From a candidate division WWE3 bacterium (GTDB taxonomy: Bacteria; Patescibacteriota; WWE3; UBA101185; UBA10185), in NCBI GenBank assembly GCA_052035175.1, contig JBPOHV010000001.1, positions 366,773-430,772 on the forward strand: a stretch of DNA of 64,000 bases, written 5' to 3'. The notes under the pieces were generated by a model. The model was given only the letters and a program-made list of their open reading frames with translations, had not been told where the DNA came from and did not search any database. A program made the translations under genes and the position numbers. How positions within the stretch are numbered: the first letter of the stretch is position 1; every line of letters begins with the position of its first letter. Shown here piece after piece: positions 1,393 to 42,783 of this stretch.

Positions 1393-4232
1393 TTGAACTT
1401 GTTGCACTTTTAGGAATCTTTATATGCTCATTATTTCTGATATATTACAGGTTTGAACTTTCAGTATATATTTTATTGGTTTTATCACTTTTATTACACA
1501 AAGAACTTTTTAGTTTTTATAGTTGGGATCTTTTGCCAATACGCGCGTTCATGGGAGCTTTAATTTGCGCGGGTGGTCTTAGAACATTCAATTATCTTAA
1601 AACTCATGATTTTAAGCCAACTAGTTTATTTCAATTTTTCAAAGACCCTTTTATTTTCTTTGTTTCTTTGCTTTGGTTAGTGCGTGGGGTTTCATTAGTA
1701 TTTTCAATGAACTTAAAGGCTAGTATTTTGTTATTTGTATTTTTCACTGGCGTTTGTACGTTATTGATTTGGTTTTATTTGGCTTTTAAAACAAAAAAAG
1801 ATGCAGTTTTGAAATACTTACACTTTTATGTGTTTCTAGTTTTTTTGCTCACGTTATTTGGTTATTTTCAAGTTTTTTTGTATTACAAGACCGGCATAAT
1901 AATTGGCGCGTTATGGAATATCCCAGATAATTTGCCACGCGTAGGTTCAACTTTTTGGGATGTAAATCATTATGCTGCATTATTGGGGACATTATTGCCA
2001 GTTGTAACAATATTCACAGTTACATCTAAATCTTGGAAAATGCGTTTGTTTAATGGTTTTATGGCTGTATCGATGTTAGGCGCTTACCTTTTGACTAATT
2101 CACGTTCTGGCTGGATTATAGGAGCTTTTTCATTTTTATTCTTTGTTATTTTCTTAGTAGTTAAAAAGATAGGGTACAAAGGTATCGCCTATGTTTTTAT
2201 TACTCTATTGCTCATAGCATTGCCTTTTTTGTATCAATACAATCAAAAGGATTCAAAATTTCGTGCAGATATACGTCAGTATTTTCATTATCGGTTAGAT
2301 TCTTTTGATTCACATTTCCTGTTGTTAACAGGTGCTTATCAAGTTTTTGAAGAGTATCCAATATTAGGTGGCGGTTATGGTAGTTTTTTTGAACACTTTA
2401 GTAAAACTAAAATTGCACCTGAATATTTTGGAAGAGACCCTGCTGCTTTAAATACGCGCGTACCTGCTCACACAATTTGGGGTGAACTTTTGGCTGATAC
2501 TGGAATCATAGGTTTAAATGCATTCATCCTTTTATTTGGAGTTTTAATAATAGTTCCATTTTTTGTTGGTTGGACAGAAAAAAGCTTTGAACTGTCTTTA
2601 CTACCCTTTGCTCTAGCTTCGACTATTATAGGTTGGCTGATTGGCGGTATCTTTTATTCGTATAATTCAGAATTTTTTTGGCTAGTTATAAGTTTGTTTT
2701 TTGTTTACGCTGTGTCATCACTGCAAGTTCATAATAAATGGAGATCTTTATTTGATTTCGTATTTACAAATGCAAAACTGCCGTTGATTGTTTTGTCGAC
2801 TCTGGCTGCTTTGCTTATATTTGTAGGGTTGGGAAGTAATCAGCTGATTCCTTGGGATGAAGCTATTTATGCAAAAGTTGCAAAAAATATGGTAACTAGT
2901 GGTGATTGGTTATCATTGCATTGGGATATGAAAGCATTGTGGTTTGAGAAACCACCATTATATATGTGGTTATCAGCTATGCTTATGTCGGTTTTTGGAT
3001 TTAGTTCTATAGTACCTAGATTACCATCGGCTATCTTTGGATTTTTATTGATAATTGTTACATATAAGTTTGCTTCAAAAATGTTCAATCGCACTGCTGG
3101 CTATATAGCTGGTCTTAGCCTATTAACAAATGTAGCAATACTTTATTATTCGCGTGCTTCTATGCTAGATGTGACTGCAACTTTCTTTATGACATCTGCG
3201 CTCTTTTTTTATGCAAAAGCAAGAAGTAAGTATTTATTTACAGATTCAACAAAAGAAGCTTTAAGTAACTGGGTATTAGCAGGACTATTTATAGGCATTG
3301 GAGCAATGGTAAAGGGAGTAGTTGGTTTATTGCCTTTGTTATGTATTGGTGTATTTGAAATATTTTTATTAGTAACTGAGCAAATTGATCTGAAAAGTTT
3401 TATAAAGAATTATTTTGTAATGTTCTCTGCAAGTTTGCTTACGTTTTTACCATGGCACCTATATATGTACTATTTGTACGGACCAATCTTTTTACAGAAT
3501 TATATTGGTTACCATGTGCTTGATCGTGCCACAAAATCGATTGAGGATAAAGGAAAACCACTATGGTGGTATTTGGAGGTTATGAAAGTTTTCATGCGCG
3601 TCTGGTTTGTGGCTTTGATACCTGCTGGTGTATACGCTACTTTTAAGTGTATTAAGTTATCAAATAAACATGTATTTTTAAGTGTTTCATCACTTGTTAT
3701 TTTACTTTTCTTTTCTGTTGCAACTTCAAAATTAGTTTGGTATATAATTCCAATTTACCCGCTGTTAGGTATTATTATTGGTGAGTTTGTAGATTGGGTG
3801 TACACCAAACTTACTTGGGTTTATGAATTTTCTGAGTATCGTTTGGTAAAAATACTTGCTTTGTATTTTATAACAGTTTTTGTTTTGAGTTATTTATTTT
3901 TTGTTAGAAGTATGGTTTATACTTCTGATACTACAGGTTCTCAAGCCAGATTGCTTATGGCAAAAGATGCGTTCTTTGGTATGGAACAAAAAGTTTTTGT
4001 CGATCGTATAGAGTTGCCTTTAGTTATGTATTATACAGATGGTCCATTTGAAATTTATGATATCGAAGTTACTAAAGGTAGATACCCATTTATTTCTCCT
4101 ACGGAAAAGTTAGTACTACTCACAAAGAAAGGCCGTTATTCTCCCACTTTACCAAATAGAAATTCTGAGGCAATTGTATATAAAGAAGATGGTGACTACG
4201 TGCTTTGGTATTTTAAGCCAGAGAGTTTATAG
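1389..4232 (+). CDS. Polytopic membrane protein: O-antigen ligase/polymerase-like domain fused to a GT-C (PMT/ArnT-like) glycosyltransferase domain
   Basis: 947 aa with many TM helices. N-terminal half has a Wzy_C-like signature (LTNSRSGWIIGAF). C-terminal half has LIPWDEAIYAKVAKNMVTSGDWLSLHWDM...FEKPPLYMW, typical of ArnT/PMT GT39/GT83 enzymes. Start overlaps the stop of the upstream GT (ATGA). Confidence 0.65.
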   Translation: MIELVALLGIFICSLFLIYYRFELSVYILLVLSLLLHKELFSFYSWDLLPIRAFMGALICAGGLRTFNYLKTHDFKPTSLFQFFKDPFIFFVSLLWLVRGVSLVFSMNLKASILLFVFFTGVCTLLIWFYLAFKTKKDAVLKYLHFYVFLVFLLTLFGYFQVFLYYKTGIIIGALWNIPDNLPRVGSTFWDVNHYAALLGTLLPVVTIFTVTSKSWKMRLFNGFMAVSMLGAYLLTNSRSGWIIGAFSFLFFVIFLVVKKIGYKGIAYVFITLLLIALPFLYQYNQKDSKFRADIRQYFHYRLDSFDSHFLLLTGAYQVFEEYPILGGGYGSFFEHFSKTKIAPEYFGRDPAALNTRVPAHTIWGELLADTGIIGLNAFILLFGVLIIVPFFVGWTEKSFELSLLPFALASTIIGWLIGGIFYSYNSEFFWLVISLFFVYAVSSLQVHNKWRSLFDFVFTNAKLPLIVLSTLAALLIFVGLGSNQLIPWDEAIYAKVAKNMVTSGDWLSLHWDMKALWFEKPPLYMWLSAMLMSVFGFSSIVPRLPSAIFGFLLIIVTYKFASKMFNRTAGYIAGLSLLTNVAILYYSRASMLDVTATFFMTSALFFYAKARSKYLFTDSTKEALSNWVLAGLFIGIGAMVKGVVGLLPLLCIGVFEIFLLVTEQIDLKSFIKNYFVMFSASLLTFLPWHLYMYYLYGPIFLQNYIGYHVLDRATKSIEDKGKPLWWYLEVMKVFMRVWFVALIPAGVYATFKCIKLSNKHVFLSVSSLVILLFFSVATSKLVWYIIPIYPLLGIIIGEFVDWVYTKLTWVYEFSEYRLVKILALYFITVFVLSYLFFVRSMVYTSDTTGSQARLLMAKDAFFGMEQKVFVDRIELPLVMYYTDGPFEIYDIEVTKGRYPFISPTEKLVLLTKKGRYSPTLPNRNSEAIVYKEDGDYVLWYFKPESL

Positions 4233-4234
4233 CA

Positions 4235-5104
4235 ATGACGCTAGAAGAAAAAACACAGAAATTTTTGGACTTTCTCAAATTCGAGTTTCCTCTTGATTAC
4301 GAAAATATATTGGCATCTTTGTCTCAGACTTATCCTACAACTTTCAGAATCAATACACTCAAATATGAACCAGATCATGTTTTGTCTTTATTGGAAGACG
4401 ATGGTTTTGTTGTCGAGAACGCAGATTTAGAAAATAGCTATATCGTGAAGTCAAATCGATTTGAAAAGCCGCTGTCATATAGTTATTTGTTTGAGAAACA
4501 ATATGTATATATTCAAAGCTTATCTAGCATGCTACCAGTTAGTTCATTGGCACCGCAGAAAGGTGAGCATATTTTAGATTTATGCGCTGCGCCTGGTAGT
4601 AAAACTTTGCAGATTGCATCACTTACAAATAATGCTGCGAGTGTTGTAGCCGTTGACAACAACAAAACCCGCTTTTACAGATTACAAGCTTTATTGAACT
4701 CATATGACGCAAGAAATATTAGTTTTATATGTGCAAATGGTGCACTTTTATACAAAACTCACCCAGCATATCAAGGCTATTTTGATAGAGTATTGCTAGA
4801 TGCGCCGTGTTCTAATGAAGGTAACATAACTTTTACAGATATGCGCACTGTTAATTATTGGCACCCACGTTTACCCAAAAAGTTATCAAAGCTACAAAAG
4901 AGTTTGCTTTATTCTGCATTAATGCTTTTGCGTCCAGGAGGGACTATGGTTTATTCGACTTGCACTTTGAATACACTAGAAAATGAAGAGGTTGTAAACT
5001 GGGCATTGGACAAGTTCAAAAATCTAAGTCTAGTCGAATCCAAAAGGATTTTACCTAACGGCTTATACAAAGGTTTTTATTATGCGAAGTTAATACTGAT
5101 ATGA
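4235..5104 (+). CDS. RsmB/Sun (NOL1/NOP2) family rRNA cytosine-C5 methyltransferase
   Basis: SAM-binding motif DLCAAPGSKT and catalytic-region motif LLDAPCSNEG. Confidence 0.75.
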   Translation: MTLEEKTQKFLDFLKFEFPLDYENILASLSQTYPTTFRINTLKYEPDHVLSLLEDDGFVVENADLENSYIVKSNRFEKPLSYSYLFEKQYVYIQSLSSMLPVSSLAPQKGEHILDLCAAPGSKTLQIASLTNNAASVVAVDNNKTRFYRLQALLNSYDARNISFICANGALLYKTHPAYQGYFDRVLLDAPCSNEGNITFTDMRTVNYWHPRLPKKLSKLQKSLLYSALMLLRPGGTMVYSTCTLNTLENEEVVNWALDKFKNLSLVESKRILPNGLYKGFYYAKLILI

Positions 5105-7105: not shown

Positions 7106-8302
7106 TTAGGCTTTGTTGCCAATATACGATAATGTTATACACACAGCACTCACTGCAGCAATCAATTGAGCCCAGGCAATTCCATATAGTCCATACATGT
7201 TGCCTAATACAAACGTACATATAAGCACTACAGTTAATTTGGTAAGACTGATTTTCAATAACTTATCAGTTTTATCTTCGACAAAAAAATAATTTTCCAT
7301 AAAAGAATGTATAGCTGTTAGTGCGTAAGCAAAAATTAATACACTTACTATTCCAATACTTTGATCAAATTTGTCCCCGAAAGCGATTTGTAAAAAGAAG
7401 TGAGACACAAATATTGCTAACACTGCTAATATCAAAATCAGCCCCGCAATAATTCCAGTTTCTATATAGTCGTATTTTAATTTATCTTTTTTGCGCAAAG
7501 AATTTTTTGGCAGTAAGACTGTAAATACAGAAATAGACGCAAGCGAAAAGATCGCAGACATTTTGTCAGCAATCGAATAAATACCTACAGAAAAATTCCC
7601 ACCAAAATATTTTGCGCTTATATTTGAAATATTAGATAAACTTTCGCTGATCATTTGAGATGTACCAGCAGGAAATGCTAATAATAGATAACTTCTGACA
7701 TTAGAAAAATTAAATCTGAGTTTTTTATATTCAGGTGGTAAAAACCAAATTAACGCGATACTTGGTAATACTGATAAAGCAAATACAGCAATATACGTAG
7801 TTGCCTGTACATTAGAAATCAAATTAAGAAAAATGAATAATCCAAATGTACCTTTTATAATAGCTGGAATAAAATTTGTAATGATAAGCAACCAGTACTT
7901 CTCGTATTTTTGAAATATTGAATACAGCGAGAAATTCAGCATATAAAAGAAAACTCCGAGTATAAATATTAAAAGAGTTTTTAAATCAAAAGAATAAACT
8001 TTCGAAATGATTAAAGATATGGGTAGCGTAATTAGAGATAAGAGCACTTTTGTAGAGAAGAATGCAGAGATTAGTTCTTGAGAAGTTTCTATTTTTAAGG
8101 CTTTTGTTACGTATATATTATTTGTTCCAAAGTCGGTGAACTTGGCCACAAAAACCAATAAAGACGTGACGAGCATGTAAAATCCAAATTCGTTTACAGG
8201 CAATTTTGCAGCCCCAGCTGATATGAGTATTAAAGCAAGCAGTGAATTGACCAAGTGCCCAATTCCTACAAAAGCGATAATAGGTAATGACTTTTTTATC
8301 AT
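7106..8302 (-). CDS. Polysaccharide biosynthesis flippase (Wzx/MOP superfamily-like)
   Basis: 398 aa, about 12 predicted TM helices. Sits in the glycosyltransferase cluster. Composition typical of oligosaccharide-unit flippases. Confidence 0.65.
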   Translation of the reverse strand: MIKKSLPIIAFVGIGHLVNSLLALILISAGAAKLPVNEFGFYMLVTSLLVFVAKFTDFGTNNIYVTKALKIETSQELISAFFSTKVLLSLITLPISLIISKVYSFDLKTLLIFILGVFFYMLNFSLYSIFQKYEKYWLLIITNFIPAIIKGTFGLFIFLNLISNVQATTYIAVFALSVLPSIALIWFLPPEYKKLRFNFSNVRSYLLLAFPAGTSQMISESLSNISNISAKYFGGNFSVGIYSIADKMSAIFSLASISVFTVLLPKNSLRKKDKLKYDYIETGIIAGLILILAVLAIFVSHFFLQIAFGDKFDQSIGIVSVLIFAYALTAIHSFMENYFFVEDKTDKLLKISLTKLTVVLICTFVLGNMYGLYGIAWAQLIAAVSAVCITLSYIGNKA

Positions 8303-8338
8303 AGTTTTCGAGTTATGTACTCCTGATATAATAGCATC

Positions 8339-9499
8339 ATGTCAAGACGCATTGGTATAGATGCTAGGTTTTATGGTAAAGCTGGGCCAGGAAGATACAC
8401 AAAGAACATAGTTCAGCATTTGGAAAAAGTTGATACACAAAACGAATATCTAATCTTTTTAACAAAAGAAGGGTATGACATGTATACACCCAAAAATGCT
8501 AATTTTCACAAAGTGCTAGCAGATTATCATTGGTATTCATTTGAAGAACAATTTGGGTTTCTTTGGTTATTATTAAAAAGCAAGCTAGATCTGTATTATG
8601 TTCCACATTTTAATATTCCAGTGTTATACCCAGGAAAAATAATAACAGCTATCCCAGATATGACGATGCATAAATTTAGCACAGAGAAAGGTACTACTCT
8701 GCCTATTTGGTATTTTAGACTTAAAAAATACGTATACAAAGCTGTGTTTTGGTGGGCAGTATTTAGATCGCAAAAAGTTATCGTGCCTTCGCAAACTGTT
8801 TTGAATGACTTTCTGTCTAATCTAAATTTTTCAAATGATAAATATGTTTTGGTCTTAGAAGGAGTTGATCCAGATTTGTTACATATTGATGTAGATGTAG
8901 AAAAAGTTTTGGCTAAGTATCGAGTTACAAAACCCTTTATTTTATATGTAAGTAGTATGTATGAGCATAAGAATGTGCCAGGCTTGATAGAAATGTTTAA
9001 GCTATTGGTTGAAAAATATGGTTATAAAGGTAATTTTGTACTCGTAAGTAAAAAAGATAAATTTTCACAAAGAGTTTATCAACAAATAAAAGCTATGGGA
9101 TATCAAGATAAAATCTTATTTCCTGCATTTAGAGTTGATTCAGATCAAGATATTGTAGTTTCTGATAGCGAAGTTGTTGCGTTTCGTAGATCTGCAGATT
9201 TGTATGTGTTCGCATCTTTTACCGAAGGTTTTAGTTTGACTGCTTTAGAAGGTATGGTAGAAGGCTTACCAGCAGTGCTTTCTGATATTGATTGTCATCG
9301 AGAAATTTATGAAGATTCCGTTTTGTATTGTGATCCTCATAATCCAAGTGATATAGCAGAAAAAGTGAATACTATGCTGACAGATAAATCATTGTTTGAT
9401 GAATATAAGAAAAGAGGGTATGAGCAAATAAAGAAATACGATTGGCTAAAAACTGCAGAGATCACTTTAGATGTTTTTAAGTCATCATTGGAGATTTAA
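8339..9499 (+). CDS. GT4-family glycosyltransferase
   Basis: Motif FTEGFSLTALEGMVEGLPAVLSD (E-x7-E GT4 signature). Confidence 0.8.
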   Translation: MSRRIGIDARFYGKAGPGRYTKNIVQHLEKVDTQNEYLIFLTKEGYDMYTPKNANFHKVLADYHWYSFEEQFGFLWLLLKSKLDLYYVPHFNIPVLYPGKIITAIPDMTMHKFSTEKGTTLPIWYFRLKKYVYKAVFWWAVFRSQKVIVPSQTVLNDFLSNLNFSNDKYVLVLEGVDPDLLHIDVDVEKVLAKYRVTKPFILYVSSMYEHKNVPGLIEMFKLLVEKYGYKGNFVLVSKKDKFSQRVYQQIKAMGYQDKILFPAFRVDSDQDIVVSDSEVVAFRRSADLYVFASFTEGFSLTALEGMVEGLPAVLSDIDCHREIYEDSVLYCDPHNPSDIAEKVNTMLTDKSLFDEYKKRGYEQIKKYDWLKTAEITLDVFKSSLEI

Positions 9500-33227: not shown

Positions 33228-33250
33228 GAATGTTCGGGATATGTTCGATA
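33228..33250 (+). promoter_or_regulatory. Candidate SOS operator at uvrB: GAATGTTCGGGATATGTTCGATA, overlapping -10 TAGAAT and the start codon
   Basis: TTCGGG core plus a second GTTCG half 11 bp downstream. TAGAAT at 33226-33231. Confidence 0.45.
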
Positions 33251-35316
33251 TTTTTTCATCTTATTCACCAACAGGAGATCAGCCAACGGCAATAGACCAG
33301 CTTACTAAAGGAGTACTTGGTGGTGTTAAAAACCAAACATTATTAGGAGTAACCGGTAGCGGTAAAACATTTACAATAGCAAACGTTATAAAAAATGTTT
33401 CAAAACCTACACTTATACTTTCACACAATAAAACTTTGGCTGCACAGCTTTATCAAGAGTTCAGAGAATTTTTTCCGAATAATGCAGTTGAATACTTTGT
33501 AAGCTATTATGACTATTATCAGCCAGAAAGTTATATCCCATCTACAGATACTTATATAGAAAAAGACGCAGATATAAACGACATGATTGATCGACTTAGG
33601 CTGTCTGCGACTACATCGTTGATGACGCGCAAAGACGTTATTGTAATTTCTTCAGTTTCTTGCATTTATAATCTTGGTTCACCTGCAGAATATTCAAAAA
33701 TGGCTATCGAAGTACGTAAAGGTATGAAGATACGTGCTGTCGATTTACTCAAAAGACTTTCACAAATATATTACGAACGTAATGAGTTTGAGTTTAAGCG
33801 CGGTACATATCGTGTGCGCGGTGATGTCATAGATATATTTCCAGCATATGTAGAGTATGCAGTGCGGTTGGAAATATTTGATGATATTTTGGTAAATGCT
33901 TCATTCTTTGATCCTTTGACTGGTGACGCGTTAAATACTGTAGGTGCTCCAAGTACAAGACAAGGCAGCCATACTCGGTCTGTTACTCAGGATGAAAAAG
34001 ATTATGCTCTGCATCGTTTGAATGAAAGTGGGCTTATTTTAATATATCCAGCCAAACACTATATTGCTGCAGAAGATAGGCGAGAATCGGCAATTGAACA
34101 AATTAAATCTGATTTAGCTTTACGCTTACAAGACTTGAAGCAGCAAGGAAGAAGCATCGAAGCTTATCGCCTTGAGCAAAGAACAAATTATGATTTGGAA
34201 ATGATGGAAGAAATAGGTTACTGCAAAGGCATTGAAAACTATTCTAGATATTTCGACGGACGAAACCCTGGTGATACACCTTATTCTTTGTTGGAGTTCT
34301 TTCCAAAAGATTATTTGTTAGTAATAGATGAGTCACATATAACTGTACCTCAAGTAAGAGGTATGTATAACGGTGATCGTTCGCGTAAGCAAACACTTAT
34401 AGATTATGGGTTTAGACTGCCATCGGCTTTGGATAACAGGCCACTAAACTTCACAGAATTTATGTCAAAGCTCAATCAAGCTATATATATAAGCGCGACT
34501 CCTTCAGAATGGGAGTTGAGTATGTCTGCAGGACATGTAGCTGAGCAATTGATTAGGCCAACAGGTATAGTTGACCCGGAAGTTACTATTTTGCCAACTC
34601 AAAATCAGATACACGATTTGTTAGATCGCATTAAAGCAAAAGTTGCAAATAATCAAAGAGTTTTGGTGACTACTTTGACTAAAAAAATGTCTGAAGAGTT
34701 GGCATCTTTTTTGACTGAAAAAGGTATTAAGGTTACTTATTTGCATTCTGATGTAGAAACTTTGGAACGGACAAATATTTTGGATGATTTGCGAAAAGGT
34801 GAGTATGACGTTTTGGTAGGCATAAACCTTTTGCGCGAAGGTTTGGATTTACCAGAAGTTTCTTTGGTAGCAATTTTGGATGCTGATAAAGAAGGCTTCT
34901 TGAGATCTGATACTTCCTTGATTCAAACTATGGGACGTGCGGCGCGCCACTTGCAAGGCGAAGTCGTGATGTATGCTGATAGTGTAACTGGCAGTATGCA
35001 GCGTGCGCTCGACGAAGTGGCGCGCCGCCGTGAAATCCAAAGAGCATACAACGAAAAACACCATATATCTCCAACTCAAATCTTCAAACCAATACGCCAA
35101 AAGTTAATCGATGAATATGTCGAGGAAATTGTTAATAAAGCTAAGAAATTTGAGACCGATGTAGATTATAAATCTATGCCACCAAAAGAAGTAAATAAAG
35201 AGGTAAAACGCATGGAAGCCGAAATGAAACTTGAAGCCGAGAATTTAAACTTTGAACGCGCAGCTGCTTTGCGAGATAAAATAAGAGAAATTAAAGGCTA
35301 TTTATCCAAGCAATAG
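33241..35316 (+). CDS. uvrB: Excinuclease ABC subunit B
   Basis: N-terminus SPTGDQPTAIDQL, Walker A GVTGSGKT, helicase motifs, C-terminal UVR domain (AENLNFERAAALRDKI). Confidence 0.95.
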   Translation: MFDIFSSYSPTGDQPTAIDQLTKGVLGGVKNQTLLGVTGSGKTFTIANVIKNVSKPTLILSHNKTLAAQLYQEFREFFPNNAVEYFVSYYDYYQPESYIPSTDTYIEKDADINDMIDRLRLSATTSLMTRKDVIVISSVSCIYNLGSPAEYSKMAIEVRKGMKIRAVDLLKRLSQIYYERNEFEFKRGTYRVRGDVIDIFPAYVEYAVRLEIFDDILVNASFFDPLTGDALNTVGAPSTRQGSHTRSVTQDEKDYALHRLNESGLILIYPAKHYIAAEDRRESAIEQIKSDLALRLQDLKQQGRSIEAYRLEQRTNYDLEMMEEIGYCKGIENYSRYFDGRNPGDTPYSLLEFFPKDYLLVIDESHITVPQVRGMYNGDRSRKQTLIDYGFRLPSALDNRPLNFTEFMSKLNQAIYISATPSEWELSMSAGHVAEQLIRPTGIVDPEVTILPTQNQIHDLLDRIKAKVANNQRVLVTTLTKKMSEELASFLTEKGIKVTYLHSDVETLERTNILDDLRKGEYDVLVGINLLREGLDLPEVSLVAILDADKEGFLRSDTSLIQTMGRAARHLQGEVVMYADSVTGSMQRALDEVARRREIQRAYNEKHHISPTQIFKPIRQKLIDEYVEEIVNKAKKFETDVDYKSMPPKEVNKEVKRMEAEMKLEAENLNFERAAALRDKIREIKGYLSKQ

Positions 35317-35337
35317 TATTATTAGTATAATAATCAT

Positions 35338-36741
35338 ATGCCTAACCACACAAAGTATGGTGATCTTTTTGGAGATAGTATGCCGGCAGAGGCGCATAGA
35401 CCTGCCAGATATTATTTTGCGCATGGTCAGCCGGTAGAGCGTTGGGAGGCTGAGCTGTTGGTTACTCCAGAAGTTCTAGATATTACGCAGAAGTTAGCTG
35501 GTGATGGCTCTGCAGTTTTAGCTGGAGGTACTGGCTTATATGCTACCTATGGCGGAAATATTCATAAAAGAGATTACGATATTACAGTTGCTGATTTACC
35601 TTTAACTGCCAACTCCACATTAGCATCATTAGGTTATGCGTATGTTTCTGGTGATTATGCTCAGCGATACAAAAAGGGGAATGTAACAATAGATATATTA
35701 AGTGCTAAACGTGTAGCTGATGCTAGTATACATGAGTTAACTAGCTTAAAATCCCAGTTACTTCAATTATCACTGCCAGGGGATGTAATGTCTAAAGCAC
35801 TTGAGCAAATTGTACGTTCAGAAAAGCTGTTGCTATCCAATGTGCTCGAATATCAAATGCGTGCGAATTGTTTTTTCAATATCGAGTTATTGGGGTATGG
35901 AGTTGATAATGCAGGGGCTATTTCTGTATTTGATGCAGGGCACATCCTTCAGGATCCAAATGAGATACACAGCTTGGATCATGCTTATAAAGCTGGCACG
36001 TTGCCGCATGCTCCTAGATACACCGTAAATACGTATTCAACGCGTAATACATTCACACAATTAATTACTGCTACAGCTGGTTCTGAACACCCACTAATGT
36101 TCACCTCAGATATGATTATGTGGTACCTAGAGAATTATGGTAGAAGCATGAGTAAATGTGCAAAAAATGATGCATCTCTTCCTTACAGTCAGTCGGCGTA
36201 TATCGACTATACTACTATTATAGATCTTGTTTTAAAAGGTGACGCACCATTTAAAGTTTCTAAGGATCTTTTAGATAAATTGCAAACTCGAGGTTTTTCA
36301 TCTTTAGAGAGTTTTGTACGTGCAAATATATGTCGCCATTTTGTGCAAGCTTTTATTTATAACCCAGAAAAGGCTATAGAGTTTTTATTTACTGAAGGGG
36401 ATATTGTTGCACCAGCACTTATGCCTAGTGTAGCATTAGGTGAAGGTGATCATAGAAGGACTACACGTGTAAGCATGTTGAGTTTGGCGGAAAAGGCCTT
36501 TCCTAAAAAGAAAGTTTGGGCGAGAGTTCCTGAATTTAGCTCCTCGCATCATCTTCAAACTGAAAAGTATGTACACTTACCGCAAAGTGTAGAACAGGCA
36601 CTGGCATTTTTATTGGTTGGGTTAAATGCAGGTGATTCTGTTGATGAGCTTTTAGCTTATTGGGCATCGATTGAAGGATTTAAAATGAATATAGATAAAA
36701 CTGAAATTGAAAAAGCTATGGTAGCTTTTAAAAAGTTATAA
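35338..36741 (+). CDS. hypothetical protein, possible nucleotidyltransferase-fold domain
   Basis: Segment LAGGTGLYATYGGNIHKRDYDITVAD fits the minimal pol-beta NTase pattern [GS]-x(9-13)-DhDhhh. The remaining ~380 aa have no recognisable motif. Locally GC-richer. Confidence 0.45.
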   Translation: MPNHTKYGDLFGDSMPAEAHRPARYYFAHGQPVERWEAELLVTPEVLDITQKLAGDGSAVLAGGTGLYATYGGNIHKRDYDITVADLPLTANSTLASLGYAYVSGDYAQRYKKGNVTIDILSAKRVADASIHELTSLKSQLLQLSLPGDVMSKALEQIVRSEKLLLSNVLEYQMRANCFFNIELLGYGVDNAGAISVFDAGHILQDPNEIHSLDHAYKAGTLPHAPRYTVNTYSTRNTFTQLITATAGSEHPLMFTSDMIMWYLENYGRSMSKCAKNDASLPYSQSAYIDYTTIIDLVLKGDAPFKVSKDLLDKLQTRGFSSLESFVRANICRHFVQAFIYNPEKAIEFLFTEGDIVAPALMPSVALGEGDHRRTTRVSMLSLAEKAFPKKKVWARVPEFSSSHHLQTEKYVHLPQSVEQALAFLLVGLNAGDSVDELLAYWASIEGFKMNIDKTEIEKAMVAFKKL

Positions 36742-36743
36742 TT

Positions 36744-37982
36744 ATGAAGCCTGTAGTATCTAATGCTTTACTCGAGCGTTTTTCTACTATGCTTATCGAT
36801 CAGGCTAGAGATTTGGATACCAGTATCACAACTTTTCGTGGTAGTTGGGTAACCTCTATTTTGATGTATTTAGCCAGAGAGCGCCGACATACGTATCTTA
36901 AGAATGCACAGGTAATTTTGCCTATCAGTGTTAAAAGCTTATATACAGATAAGAATGCAACGTTTGGTAATACATATAATTATTACAAAGAATTCTATAA
37001 AAATTTGACTATATCAACTCACACTGACTTAGAGAGTTTAATTTATGCACTTACGCATGGCGCTGATTACAAAGTTACGATATTGGCTAACGGGTTTGGT
37101 ACTCTTTTACAAACTAACAACACACATTTCAGTGCAGCAATCGCTTTAAGAGAGTTGAAAAAAATAAATCCTAAAAATGTGAGCTTTATCTTTGTTAATA
37201 CTGTAGAAATTTATCCTACCGATATACAACAAATCCCTGGATTGATGTCTAGCTTCTTACAAAACATGCGTTGGCAGCAAGACTTTGTTATTGATAAGGA
37301 AAGTGTAGCTAATATTTTATGTAATGAAACAGGTAAGCGAGAGTATGAAGAGAACGATTTATTAATATCAAAAGTATTTGAATACGCATATAATGATCCT
37401 TCTGTAGTGCAAATCATAGGAAAAAATCTATTAATTGACGCAGACTTTGAGAGGCAACTTTTGTCTGCTGGTAGCATTGCTGACCTATATGAAGTGATAG
37501 GTAAAGATAAGCTTGATTCACGTTATCGCCAGATTTTGAGCAGCCTAAAAAAAGAATCAAGGCAAAGTTTGCAGTATTATCTTGAATCTGACAATTCTGC
37601 GCATTTACCGACGATTTACTTGTTAAAAACAAATTTACTTGTTAGGAGTCATGATAGCTATAAGGCAATGAACCCTCTTTTTGATCACTATTTAAAGTCT
37701 GTAGACTTTCACTCAGCAGACATTTATGAATCAAGCGTTGATAAGCTAACGCGTGCATTAACTGGTCAAGAGCAGCAACTCTTTAATCTGTTACAAGTTA
37801 AACATGGCAAATTTGCTACCAAAGACGAAATCGCTCAAACTATTTGGGGAGATACTTGGCAAGATGTGTATAGTGACTGGGCAATTGATAAGCTTGTCTC
37901 TACACTACGCAAAAAACTTGTAGACAATAATTATGAAAAGACAATAAAAGCAGTGAGAAACAAAGGTATTATGTTAGTTTGA
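36744..37982 (+). CDS. hypothetical protein with C-terminal OmpR/PhoB-type winged-helix DNA-binding domain
   Basis: C-terminus LTGQEQQLFNLL...TKDEIAQTIWGD...LVSTLRKKL...KAVRNKGIMLV matches the Trans_reg_C pattern. The N-terminal ~320 aa are unknown. Confidence 0.5.
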   Translation: MKPVVSNALLERFSTMLIDQARDLDTSITTFRGSWVTSILMYLARERRHTYLKNAQVILPISVKSLYTDKNATFGNTYNYYKEFYKNLTISTHTDLESLIYALTHGADYKVTILANGFGTLLQTNNTHFSAAIALRELKKINPKNVSFIFVNTVEIYPTDIQQIPGLMSSFLQNMRWQQDFVIDKESVANILCNETGKREYEENDLLISKVFEYAYNDPSVVQIIGKNLLIDADFERQLLSAGSIADLYEVIGKDKLDSRYRQILSSLKKESRQSLQYYLESDNSAHLPTIYLLKTNLLVRSHDSYKAMNPLFDHYLKSVDFHSADIYESSVDKLTRALTGQEQQLFNLLQVKHGKFATKDEIAQTIWGDTWQDVYSDWAIDKLVSTLRKKLVDNNYEKTIKAVRNKGIMLV

Positions 37983-38034
37983 ACTTGGTTAGCTAAAAAA
38001 TCCTAGTAAGAAAAGAAATACACCTGCATCTATC

Positions 38035-38058
38035 AAGCAGGTTTTTATAATAAAGTCG
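38035..38058 (+). terminator. Rho-independent terminator
   Basis: CCTGC-ATCTATCAA-GCAGG followed by TTTTTAT, directly after the 36744..37982 gene. Confidence 0.6.
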
Positions 38059-41379: not shown

Positions 41380-42783
41380 TTATTTATAGTAATCGTTTAA
41401 TTGACTATATGGCACTATCTTCATATCTGGGTTTTGTGTTAGCAAGTCTTTTTGTAACTGCAGATCTAACGTATCATCTCTGAATATCACAGCTTTTATA
41501 TCTTTACTAGAAACATGCATATTTCTTGGTTGTTTCGTATAACCTTTACTTGGATGCAACACGCCTTCTACGTATACACCATTGCCCTTCATTGCGCCTG
41601 CTTCAGGCGTTCCTGGTAAATATGTATAGCTCATGTGTTTTTCTATTTCAAATACTTCTCGGAATGCATGTACCATTCTTGCATCAACAAGTGAAAGCAT
41701 TTTGATTAAAGTTCCATCTGCAAATTCATGTCGTCCTATTGGTTCTCCTCGATCACCATATGTATATTCAACTCTTAAGGCTAGTGCTTCGTTGAAATGA
41801 ACAAAGATAGGTCTTTTTTTGCCCCATTCGTAGCGCTCGCCAGTTTTTTTTGAAATAAGTGCCCCGTACAATACAGAGTAAGGTTCGTTATTAACGGTTG
41901 CTTCTAATTGGGCTGGTGCGGTTGCATTCGAAAAAATAATAGTGTCGTATATTTCTAGTATCTGTTGTTCTAGTTCGTCTACTTGCATTGTGTCTATTAA
42001 TTCCGCTGCTTGAGAGTCCACTATCTCAATAGGTGAATCGCCAAGAGTGTGTTTTAATAATTCAATTGCTTCCCTCTGTTCGTTGGAATCAGCAATATTG
42101 TTGTATATTGTTTCTACCGCTTTTTCTATTTCGAGTTTTATTTTGTTTTGTATTTTTTCGCGTGTTAAAAACTTGCCAACTTTTTCAATAACTGCTATAG
42201 CCGCATTTTCACTTGTTTGCTTATTAATAGCAGTAGTTATGTTTTTTTCTGTAAATAGTGGTTCTTCTTGTATATTCTCAACTAGATGTATAAACTGAAT
42301 AACGGTTTGATTAGGCGCAGAAAAGTTTTCTAAGAAAAGTTCGTTTTTAGCCTCATCACAATCAACATCAGCGATGTTTACGCCTTTAACCTGTATTTGT
42401 ACACCACTCTCAGACTTAACCAGGCTATATTCATCTGGTAATCTTTTTTTTAATATTTCGATATCAGTATTTAATTTGGCAAATAGTATGGAGTGATCGC
42501 TTGCATTTGTTTTAAAAGAAATAGACATGAGTTCATTATCAGGAGTTTCCATTCTTATACTAGGTCCTGCTCCTAGTGTATCGATATATACTTTACACGC
42601 TTTAACCAAAGTGTCTGCGTGTGCAGTTTCATCTTCTATTACTTGTGTAAAATTCGCATACCTAGCAATTTTTTTGGTGTATGTTTCTAATAGTTCCAAC
42701 TTTAAATTTTCTTGGCTTGTTTGAACCTCATCAGCAGTGTTTTCAATATGAACTTCTTTTTCACTGGTTATATCATCAAGCAT
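41380..42783 (-). CDS. hypothetical protein (467 aa, acidic N-terminal half)
   Basis: Long ORF with no recognisable catalytic motif. Co-directional with the upstream 94-aa gene and separated from it by 8 bp. Confidence 0.5.
   Translation of the reverse strand: MLDDITSEKEVHIENTADEVQTSQENLKLELLETYTKKIARYANFTQVIEDETAHADTLVKACKVYIDTLGAGPSIRMETPDNELMSISFKTNASDHSILFAKLNTDIEILKKRLPDEYSLVKSESGVQIQVKGVNIADVDCDEAKNELFLENFSAPNQTVIQFIHLVENIQEEPLFTEKNITTAINKQTSENAAIAVIEKVGKFLTREKIQNKIKLEIEKAVETIYNNIADSNEQREAIELLKHTLGDSPIEIVDSQAAELIDTMQVDELEQQILEIYDTIIFSNATAPAQLEATVNNEPYSVLYGALISKKTGERYEWGKKRPIFVHFNEALALRVEYTYGDRGEPIGRHEFADGTLIKMLSLVDARMVHAFREVFEIEKHMSYTYLPGTPEAGAMKGNGVYVEGVLHPSKGYTKQPRNMHVSSKDIKAVIFRDDTLDLQLQKDLLTQNPDMKIVPYSQLNDYYK

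Follow-up and report, generated by a model that had tools for sequence, protein, structure and literature searches.

The 64,000-nucleotide stretch of DNA analysed here (the window; positions 366,773 to 430,772 of contig JBPOHV010000001.1 of a candidate division WWE3 bacterium) carries two adjoining genes, ORF1 and ORF2 (ORF, open reading frame), which lie on the + strand with a spacer of 2 bp between them (Table 1). An earlier note, made without database searches, had described them as a gene for a nucleotidyltransferase (NTase)-like protein followed by one for a protein with a C-terminal OmpR-type winged helix, situated between uvrB and a terminator. Both genes were found where it had placed them. 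The uvrB gene (33241-35316) ends 21 bp upstream of ORF1, and the probable terminator is a hairpin ACCTGC-N9-GCAGGT followed by T5 (RNAfold dG -8.3 kcal/mol), which a consensus scan missed because its loop is 9 nt long. The pair is a co-inherited two-gene cassette, largely restricted to Patescibacteria (the Candidate Phyla Radiation, CPR). Two features had been overlooked in the earlier note, namely an AAA+-like module in ORF2 and the existence of a patescibacterial family in which the regulator is constant and its partner highly variable.

Searches with ORF1 returned very few sequences: a word-indexed search of 5.8 billion clusters gave only ORF1 itself, and phmmer against 1.84 billion representatives gave a single relative, P0013 (22% identity, E 2.7e-6). 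This relative, found via ORF1 alone, lies in a ribosomal-protein/RadC neighbourhood, and the gene after it codes for a full-length homologue of ORF2 (33% identity, E 9e-74). The ORF1 family was assembled from loci fetched via ORF2 homologues, and its solid members are the copies in the window, L006 (the same as P0013), L002, L034, L001, L003 and L005, plus a fragment in L033 (7 + 1). All seven solid homologues adjoin an ORF2 homologue, in unrelated neighbourhoods, and the hidden Markov model (HMM) of the ORF1 family finds a partner beside every close ORF2 homologue. In the window, L006, L002, L034 and L033 (the fragment), the partner precedes the regulator on the same strand; in L001, L003/L004 and L005 the two genes converge and their 3' ends overlap.

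For a wider set, one genome per species and the metagenomes of the Joint Genome Institute (JGI) were scanned (103 more loci; 88 distinct regulators). Among the 52 regulators whose flanks both measured 1.3 kb or more, 47 had an ORF of 330 aa or longer immediately beside them; the abutting partners were downstream and co-directional (27), upstream and co-directional (11), convergent (11) or divergent (2). Regulators and partners also diverge together, in that for 40 of 45 regulators the partner of the nearest regulator relative fell into the same cluster as their own, while 3.6 would be expected at random, and this count contradicts a chance adjacency. The co-conservation of the two genes in other genomes, on which the earlier note had made its reading depend, is thus clearly borne out by the seven adjoining homologues and the co-divergence.

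The loci that carry an organism name come mostly from Patescibacteria (Gottesman-, Roizman-, Woese-, Davies-, Ames-, Levy-, Dojka-, Nomura- and Saccharibacteria), and none of the family was found on viral contigs. Five loci (L015, L019, L023, L028 and L030) derive from metagenome-assembled genomes labelled 'uncultured Gammaproteobacteria/Pseudomonadales', and L032 from one labelled 'Candidatus Eisenbacteria'; either these contigs belong to CPR and were mislabelled or mis-binned, or the family occurs, rarely, outside CPR. Several cassettes may be present in a genome: L035 and L040 are on one contig, 38 kb apart, while L075 holds two regulators (3571-4857 and 7640-8893) and shares its 222-kb contig with L106. 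Tandem regulator genes were seen at L041 and L083, the latter of which looks split (171 + 283 aa) and is possibly a pseudogene. Finally, L112 and L065 contain three-gene modules, in which an extra, very large unannotated gene (868-881 aa) stands upstream of the regulator, and the partner measures 986-1010 aa.

The C-terminal domain of ORF2 was readily identified. Its residues 338-410 match Pfam Trans_reg_C with E 4.5e-10 and 39.9 bits (cutoff 26.2 bits), and the same domain is present in 33 of 33 members of the ORF2 family, where it is near-invariant (IWGxxWxxxYSDWAIDKLVSxLRKKL), with W368, W372, Y376, S377, D378, W379, A380 and G408 invariant in all 33 sequences. No receiver domain (Response_reg) was detected in ORF2 by Pfam or NCBIfam, the latter matching only the C-terminal ~80 aa. 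The earlier note was therefore right to see an OmpR/PhoB winged helix without a receiver.

For the remainder of the protein, a profile built from the 33-sequence family alignment (A4) was run against all sequences in the PDB. The best match, ahead of all OmpR-family winged helix-turn-helix (wHTH) structures, was the archaeal Cdc6/Orc1 protein 2qby_A (E 5e-10); profile positions 35-288 correspond to residues 46-306 of that structure over 254 positions, and the alignment stays colinear from Walker A and Walker B to sensor 1 and the lid. Human CDC6 (E 1.6e-4), Cdc6-3 (0.011) and, weakly, an NB-ARC protein (0.03) were also matched, and apart from the latter no other AAA+ clade appeared among the best 60 of the 84 matches at E<=1. 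As judged from these profile matches, the N-terminal ~300 aa of ORF2 is an Orc1/Cdc6-like AAA+ module, which is degenerate in the window copy. The winged helix that follows is of the OmpR type and not of the Orc/Cdc6 type. Searches of Pfam, NCBIfam and PADLOC gave no curated model for the whole protein, and no curated model or description of an Orc1/Cdc6-like AAA+ plus OmpR wHTH architecture was found.

The nucleotide-binding motifs of this module have largely decayed. The segments equivalent to Walker A (FRGSWVTS) and Walker B (VTILANGF) in the window copy predict a protein that is ATPase-dead and does not hydrolyse NTP. In the alignment columns of the family, GK[ST] survives in no more than 6 of the 76 distinct members, and canonical motifs occur in some relatives, such as L014 (GLPGVGKTS with VFILDS) and L034 (GAGKT).

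ORF1 evolves fast; an NTase-like core at its N-terminus is followed by a long C-terminal region that is mostly helical. The recognizable parts of the core are a helix (PEVLDITQKLAG), a strand followed by LAGGTG (G63/G64; LAGGTGLY spans residues 61-68), DYDITV (residues 79-84, with D79 and D81) and VTIDILS (with D119). The arrangement LAGG(63,64)-x14-D79-Y-D81-I fits the Pol-beta NTase pattern hG[G/S]...DhD, for which we used the published definitions of that motif, hG[G/S]-x9-13(15)-DhD, and of the AbiEii motifs (PMC3985639). The hG[GS]..DxD motif is present in 8 of the 9 family members with a complete N-terminus. In the 10-member family alignment, where identity is only ~12-21%, D79 and D81 are the sole columns conserved at 90% or more, and the three closest members (alignment A1) all share G64, D79, D81 and D119. 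D119, the candidate third carboxylate, is aligned to D in 6 of 8 members and absent there in L044 and L079; the strand that bears it comes only from low-confidence models. Taken over the family, the pattern is hhhG[GS]-x(10-45)-DxD-h and, further on, G-h-x-h-D-h, which corresponds to the signature of Pol-beta NTases.

By these alignments the G..DxD..D motif of ORF1 exceeds chance, and the protein is most probably a Mg2+-dependent NTase-like enzyme (hG[GS]-x14-DxD plus a third Asp). The element order alpha-beta-GG-alpha-beta(DxD)-alpha-beta...beta(D) was seen in both of two AlphaFold (AF2) models; because both models are of low confidence, it is only through the motif that the putative NTase fold is supported. 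What the earlier note had observed is confirmed, including its pol-beta NTase-like motif, and its interpretation is partly supported.

Of the domains that the earlier note had in mind for HMM searches, Trans_reg_C was found in ORF2. In contrast, neither ORF1 nor its relatives gave any match in Pfam, NCBIfam or PADLOC, even at E<=10 (including NTP_transf_2, DUF1814, CD-NTase and PAP), and ORF1 had no match in PHROG. The top matches in the PDB searches for ORF1 and its family, a superantigen and a C5a peptidase, were dismissed as chance.

Table 1. Position of the genes and of the predicted features of the cassette; rows refer to the window except the last, which is numbered within each locus.
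Feature	Position	Strand	Remarks and basis
ORF1	35338..36741	+	467 aa, ATG start; ORF call
Putative NTase catalytic core of ORF1 (residues 44-122)	35467..35703	+	alignment conservation and low-confidence models
Conserved C-terminal family motif of ORF1 (RHFVQAFIYNPEKAIEFL; consensus F[AS]RAxxx[DN]PxxA)	36334..36387	+	alignment A5
ORF2	36744..37982	+	412 aa, ATG start; ORF call
Walker-A-equivalent FRGSWVTS (no GK[ST])	36834..36857	+	family alignment column extraction
Predicted AAA+ region of ORF2 (base + lid; approx. residues 35-290)	36846..37613	+	family profile against PDB
Walker-B-equivalent strand KVTILANGFG (no acidic residue)	37071..37100	+	family alignment
OmpR/PhoB-type wHTH of ORF2 (Trans_reg_C, residues 338-410; recognition helix YSDWAIDKLVSTLRKKL)	37755..37973	+	Pfam
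Probable intrinsic terminator 3' of ORF2	38022..38047	+	6-bp stem, 9-nt loop, T5 tail
Domain-bearing partners	L091:1931-3928, L048:1874-3409, L025:4282-5460, L026:4215-7007		other regulator subfamily

The partners are far more diverse than the regulators, 68 of them falling into 33 clusters (phmmer). When the 33 clusters were compared by hhalign, no significant unification was obtained, the only recurrent matches being weak ones on the G[GS]..DxD segment. The NTase-like N-terminal signature is nevertheless also found outside the ORF1 family (e.g. L007, L012, L013, L063, L074 and L095), and the motif is commoner in partners (12 of 66) than in the remaining large ORFs at these loci (4 of 134; p = 4e-4). 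Most partners had no match in a Pfam scan. Some, which go with a different subfamily of the regulator, have a cytidine/dCMP deaminase domain (L091, 1.8e-19; L048, 7.9e-12; L025, 3.3e-5) or a SAM methyltransferase domain (L026, 1.9e-19), in each case behind a long N-terminal region without Pfam match; the deaminase partners also match MafB19-like deaminase. The combination of a constant regulator with a swappable nucleotide or nucleic-acid enzyme is one that characterizes toxin/defence-type cassettes and regulator-plus-cargo modules.

Since the recognition helix does not vary within the family, a DNA site common to its members was sought by comparing the upstream regions of the regulators with 151 other promoters of the same loci. 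The word TCTGAC was present in 24 of 78 regulator promoters and in 4 of the 151 others (p 2.5e-9), and the word ATCCTGAC in 14 regulator promoters and 2 others. YYTGAC words occur as 2-5 direct repeats with a spacing of 10-11 bp (e.g. at -86/-75/-64, -144/-133/-122 or -32/-21/-10), often as WTCCTGACW, and lie at or overlap a -35-like CTTGAC. They were seen upstream of ORF2-family genes at L018, L023, L068, L079, L081, L083, L091, L094 and other loci. In 562 kb there are 50 tandem YYTGAC-N4-6-YYTGAC sites, 34 of which are on the same strand as a regulator and between -260 and +30 of its start, where 1.1 would be expected. These direct repeats look like the operator of the regulator family. Their geometry is the classical one of OmpR/PhoB operators, from which the regulator is predicted to control its own gene and that of a downstream partner transcribed with it. 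The closest relatives of the window copy mostly lack the YYTGAC array. Direct operator control of the convergent partners was considered as well, and is not supported.

As to the surroundings of the pair, its genes are probably transcribed together with uvrB, considering the 21-bp gap and a promoter scan that gave no promoter-like site. A perfect TATAAT is located at 35326-35331, 6 nt before the ATG of ORF1 and within the 21-bp spacer, and no -35 was found for it; it could belong to a leaderless or very short-leader transcript, or reflect plain AT-richness. ORF1 had been called locally GC-richer in the earlier note, which is true (0.389, against 0.377 for uvrB and a window gene mean of 0.357 +/- 0.026) but minor, and not meaningful because it is only ~1.2 standard deviations (SD) above that mean.

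The segment 31906-46284 is a DNA-repair neighbourhood, with the order LexA(-) / UvrB / ORF1 / ORF2 / ~5 kb of unknowns / UvrA, so that uvrB and uvrA are kept apart by the pair and by ~5 kb of unknown genes. RecG and RadC are found near two ORF1-ORF2 relatives (L003 and L006). A link of the pair with DNA damage is possible; it is not favoured because the gene contexts differ among loci, and the adjacency to uvrB is not kept in relatives. Downstream, five small ORFs of 99-241 aa follow one another between 38168 and 41303; each has a hydrophobic N-terminus or more than one hydrophobic segment, and one begins like a lipoprotein (MSQKILSFGLALFVAFMAAC). Their GC is 0.42, while that of the window is 0.36, and the three that were scanned (38168, 38735 and 39247) had no Pfam match. 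The run is possibly a small acquired island of membrane or secreted proteins. It is followed at 41380-42783 (-) by an acidic ORF of 467 aa, equal in length to ORF1 but unrelated to it (HMM E 7.6), with no match in Pfam or PHROG. As for signs of a mobile element around the pair, there was no integrase, tRNA, flanking repeat or Rfam match.

Since the enzymatic domain changes between subfamilies and the regulator does not, we tentatively favour the explanation that the cassette is composed of a constant regulator and a variable enzymatic cargo, ORF1 being its probable NTase-like enzyme. The constant element is ORF2, a predicted transcription factor in which an AAA+ module stands ahead of the winged helix in the place of an OmpR-family receiver. 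ORF1 is the variable element, co-evolving with the N-terminal domain of the regulator, which evolves fast and co-diverges with the partner. The cargo enzyme would act on nucleotides or nucleic acids, and the AAA+-like domain would serve as an input switch, binding either the partner itself or a nucleotide that the partner makes or uses, so that the two proteins would be coupled physically or through a ligand. The winged helix would bind DNA, its target in many relatives being the 10-11-bp-phased YYTGAC repeats at the regulator's own promoter. The role of such a device may be defence- or toxin-like, in which case ORF1 would be a harmful cargo and ORF2 its controller or neutralizer, or it may be one in signalling, in which case ORF1 would modify ORF2 or make its ligand.

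It should be noted that several results weigh against this explanation. As far as ORF1 is concerned, sequence and profile searches of the PDB with ORF1, with alignment A1 and with the N-terminal core (A6) returned no NTase, and structure prediction, which the earlier note had proposed, gave a pLDDT (predicted local distance difference test) of only ~39 in both AF2 runs, that is, an NTase-like order of elements and no confident fold. Most partner clusters have no demonstrable homology to ORF1 (hhalign not significant), and among the loci weakly linked to the ORF1 family (L044/L045, L079 and L049), the regulator-first L044, L079 and L049 are tied to it only by E values of 1e-3 to 1e-4. As to ORF2, the loss of both Walker A and Walker B makes nucleotide-dependent switching doubtful in the window copy. 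Furthermore, the tandem YYTGAC operator is absent from the whole 64-kb window, where nothing rose above chance; with no operator there and a gap of only 21 bp between uvrB and ORF1, the operator does not account for the window copy's own regulation. Elsewhere, of 13 promoters of convergent partners only one carries it.

A first alternative is that the pair is an AbiE-like type IV toxin-antitoxin or abortive-infection system, in which ORF1 would be a growth-arresting NTase toxin (AbiEii/MenT-like), and ORF2 a DNA-binding autorepressor and antitoxin that neutralizes it through its N-terminal domain. The long hG[GS]-x14-DxD spacing is as in DUF1814, an Arg stands just before DxD in 5 of 10 family members (cf. 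AbiEii motif II), and start/stop overlaps or 2-bp spacings suggest translational coupling. The position of the operator at the promoter of regulator-first operons, the hypervariable partners with toxin-type domains (such as the deaminase that also matches MafB19-like), the possible presence of several copies on a contig and the sporadic distribution would also fit. However, no match to DUF1814/AbiEii was obtained from Pfam at E<=10, nor any from PADLOC; by regular-expression search of the 10 family members motif III (KLxAaxxR) is absent and motif IV (+DxxD) not conserved; and ORF2, with its C-terminal OmpR wHTH and AAA+ module, does not have the N-terminal wHTH and C-terminal domain (CTD) of AbiEi. 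In addition, the window has its NTase-like gene ahead of the regulator, in 11 modules the genes converge and so are not co-transcribed, both proteins are far larger than typical toxin-antitoxin components, the family was not found on viral contigs and the neighbours are housekeeping genes. We regard this alternative as unlikely, and membership in the toxin-antitoxin, abortive-infection or nucleotide-signalling systems that the earlier note had mentioned is not supported, considering also that no CD-NTase match was found.

A non-phosphorelay, 'two-component-like' signalling pair appears rather less probable. Here, the DNA binding of ORF2 would be switched by ORF1, a sensor enzyme that would either nucleotidylylate it or provide a nucleotide ligand for what is left of its P-loop. 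It is true that an OmpR wHTH normally stands behind a signal-receiving domain that is modified by an adjacent partner, that the receiver is replaced in ORF2 by an AAA+ nucleotide-binding fold with an NTase-like partner adjoining, that the N-terminal domain of the regulator and the partner co-diverge, and that archaeal Orc1-2 is controlled by ATP binding and hydrolysis and by phosphorylation (PMC9738581, PMC12490963). Yet the partner enzyme varies (NTase-like, deaminase, methyltransferase or unknown) while the regulator is constant, which is the opposite of what is seen in sensor-kinase systems; moreover, the partners have no input or sensor domain recognizable by Pfam, and Walker A is destroyed in the window ORF2.

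It is to the same low degree conceivable that ORF1 is not an enzyme, and that its G..DxD..D residues are structural or metal-binding in a novel, non-NTase fold, ORF1 acting as a non-catalytic adaptor or as a target of the regulator. No sequence or structure method puts ORF1 in the NTase superfamily, and by regular expression the motif is lacking in 54 of 66 partners. What speaks for the enzyme is that the acidic residues are the most conserved positions in a family otherwise ~15-20% identical, and that their order, spacing and predicted strand/helix context fit a Pol-beta NTase core. A still lower probability is given to a Patescibacteria-specific non-phosphorelay signalling/immunity device, in which an Orc1/Cdc6-derived (pseudo-)ATPase joined to an OmpR wHTH would be switched by its own co-evolving enzyme; in the window's subfamily an NTase would nucleotidylylate the regulator, or load its decayed P-loop pocket with a nucleotide product, and in this way control a conserved YYTGAC regulon. 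Lastly, a fortuitous adjacency, or a replication/maintenance module (with an Orc1/Cdc6-like initiator) of a cryptic integrated element, might be suggested by the frequency of abutting neighbours in gene-dense CPR genomes, by the initiator architecture of Orc1/Cdc6 (AAA+ plus winged helix) and by the position of the pair and ~5 kb of unknown genes between uvrB and uvrA, but is very improbable, given that homologous partners remain neighbours in all three gene orders and in surroundings unrelated to each other, and co-diverge strongly, that no integrase, tRNA, flanking repeats or viral-contig matches were found, and that an OmpR-type winged helix with promoter-proximal direct-repeat operators is typical of transcription factors.

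The cassette of regulator and variable cargo is related to known NTPase-HTH (helix-turn-helix) regulators and NTase-plus-wHTH pairs; membership in AbiE, in CBASS or among the response regulators was rejected, owing to missing HMM matches and motifs, the lack of an effector and the lack of a receiver. With the OmpR/PhoB response regulators ORF2 shares the C-terminal Trans_reg_C wHTH, and the direct repeats of its family, with their 10-11 bp phasing and their -35-like CTTGAC overlapped or abutted, resemble pho boxes; unlike these regulators, ORF2 has neither a receiver nor a histidine kinase partner, and its input module is AAA+-like. Like the AbiE/MenT-type NTase toxins, the cassette would be a two-gene unit of a Pol-beta-type NTase-like protein and a wHTH autoregulator, and the ORF1 family shares with AbiEii/DUF1814 the longer G[GS]-DxD spacing and the Arg beside DxD. 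It differs from AbiE in its different and much larger regulator, and in a variable gene order that includes the convergent one. From CBASS it is set apart by the lack of a CD-NTase or PADLOC match and of an effector-type neighbour at the locus.

The one-component regulators that join an NTPase to an HTH, such as MalT/LAL and AfsR/SARP, couple an NTP-binding switch to a DNA-binding domain, as ORF2 would do, while the BrxR/CapW-type regulators are conserved regulators beside variable defence cargo, as in the ORF1-ORF2 cassette. They differ from ORF2 in the type of their DNA-binding domain or in domain order: a LuxR HTH in LAL, an N-terminal wHTH plus BTAD in SARP and a wHTH-WYL in BrxR/CapW. ORF2 has no sensor repeats, and its cargo is a single gene without known defence annotation.

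The closest parallel in architecture is archaeal Orc1/Cdc6, especially Orc1-2, in which an N-terminal AAA+ domain (base and lid) is likewise followed by a C-terminal winged-helix DNA-binding domain. In the Sulfolobales, Orc1-2 is not an initiator but a sequence-specific DNA-damage regulator, switched by ATP and by post-translational modification/phosphorylation (PMC9738581, PMC12490963). ORF2, in contrast, is a bacterial (CPR) protein, its winged helix is of the OmpR/PhoB type, Walker A and B have been lost from it and from most of its family, and it has an obligate adjacent partner gene. Moreover, a role in the DNA-damage response is known for Orc1-2, whereas the adjacency of ORF2 to uvrB is not kept in relatives.

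The cassette defines an Orc1/Cdc6-like AAA+ plus OmpR wHTH architecture, together with a computationally predicted operator, which is directly testable, and an obligate, hypervariable enzymatic partner that accompanies the regulator. CPR/Patescibacteria make up a large share of bacterial diversity and, to the best of our knowledge, their regulatory repertoire is almost uncharacterized. ORF2 would be a bacterial parallel to archaeal Orc1-2, with the Orc1/Cdc6 fold again serving in a transcription factor. If the partner is indeed an active NTase, the cassette would embody either a new toxin/defence logic or a new route by which a signal reaches an OmpR-type DNA-binding domain.

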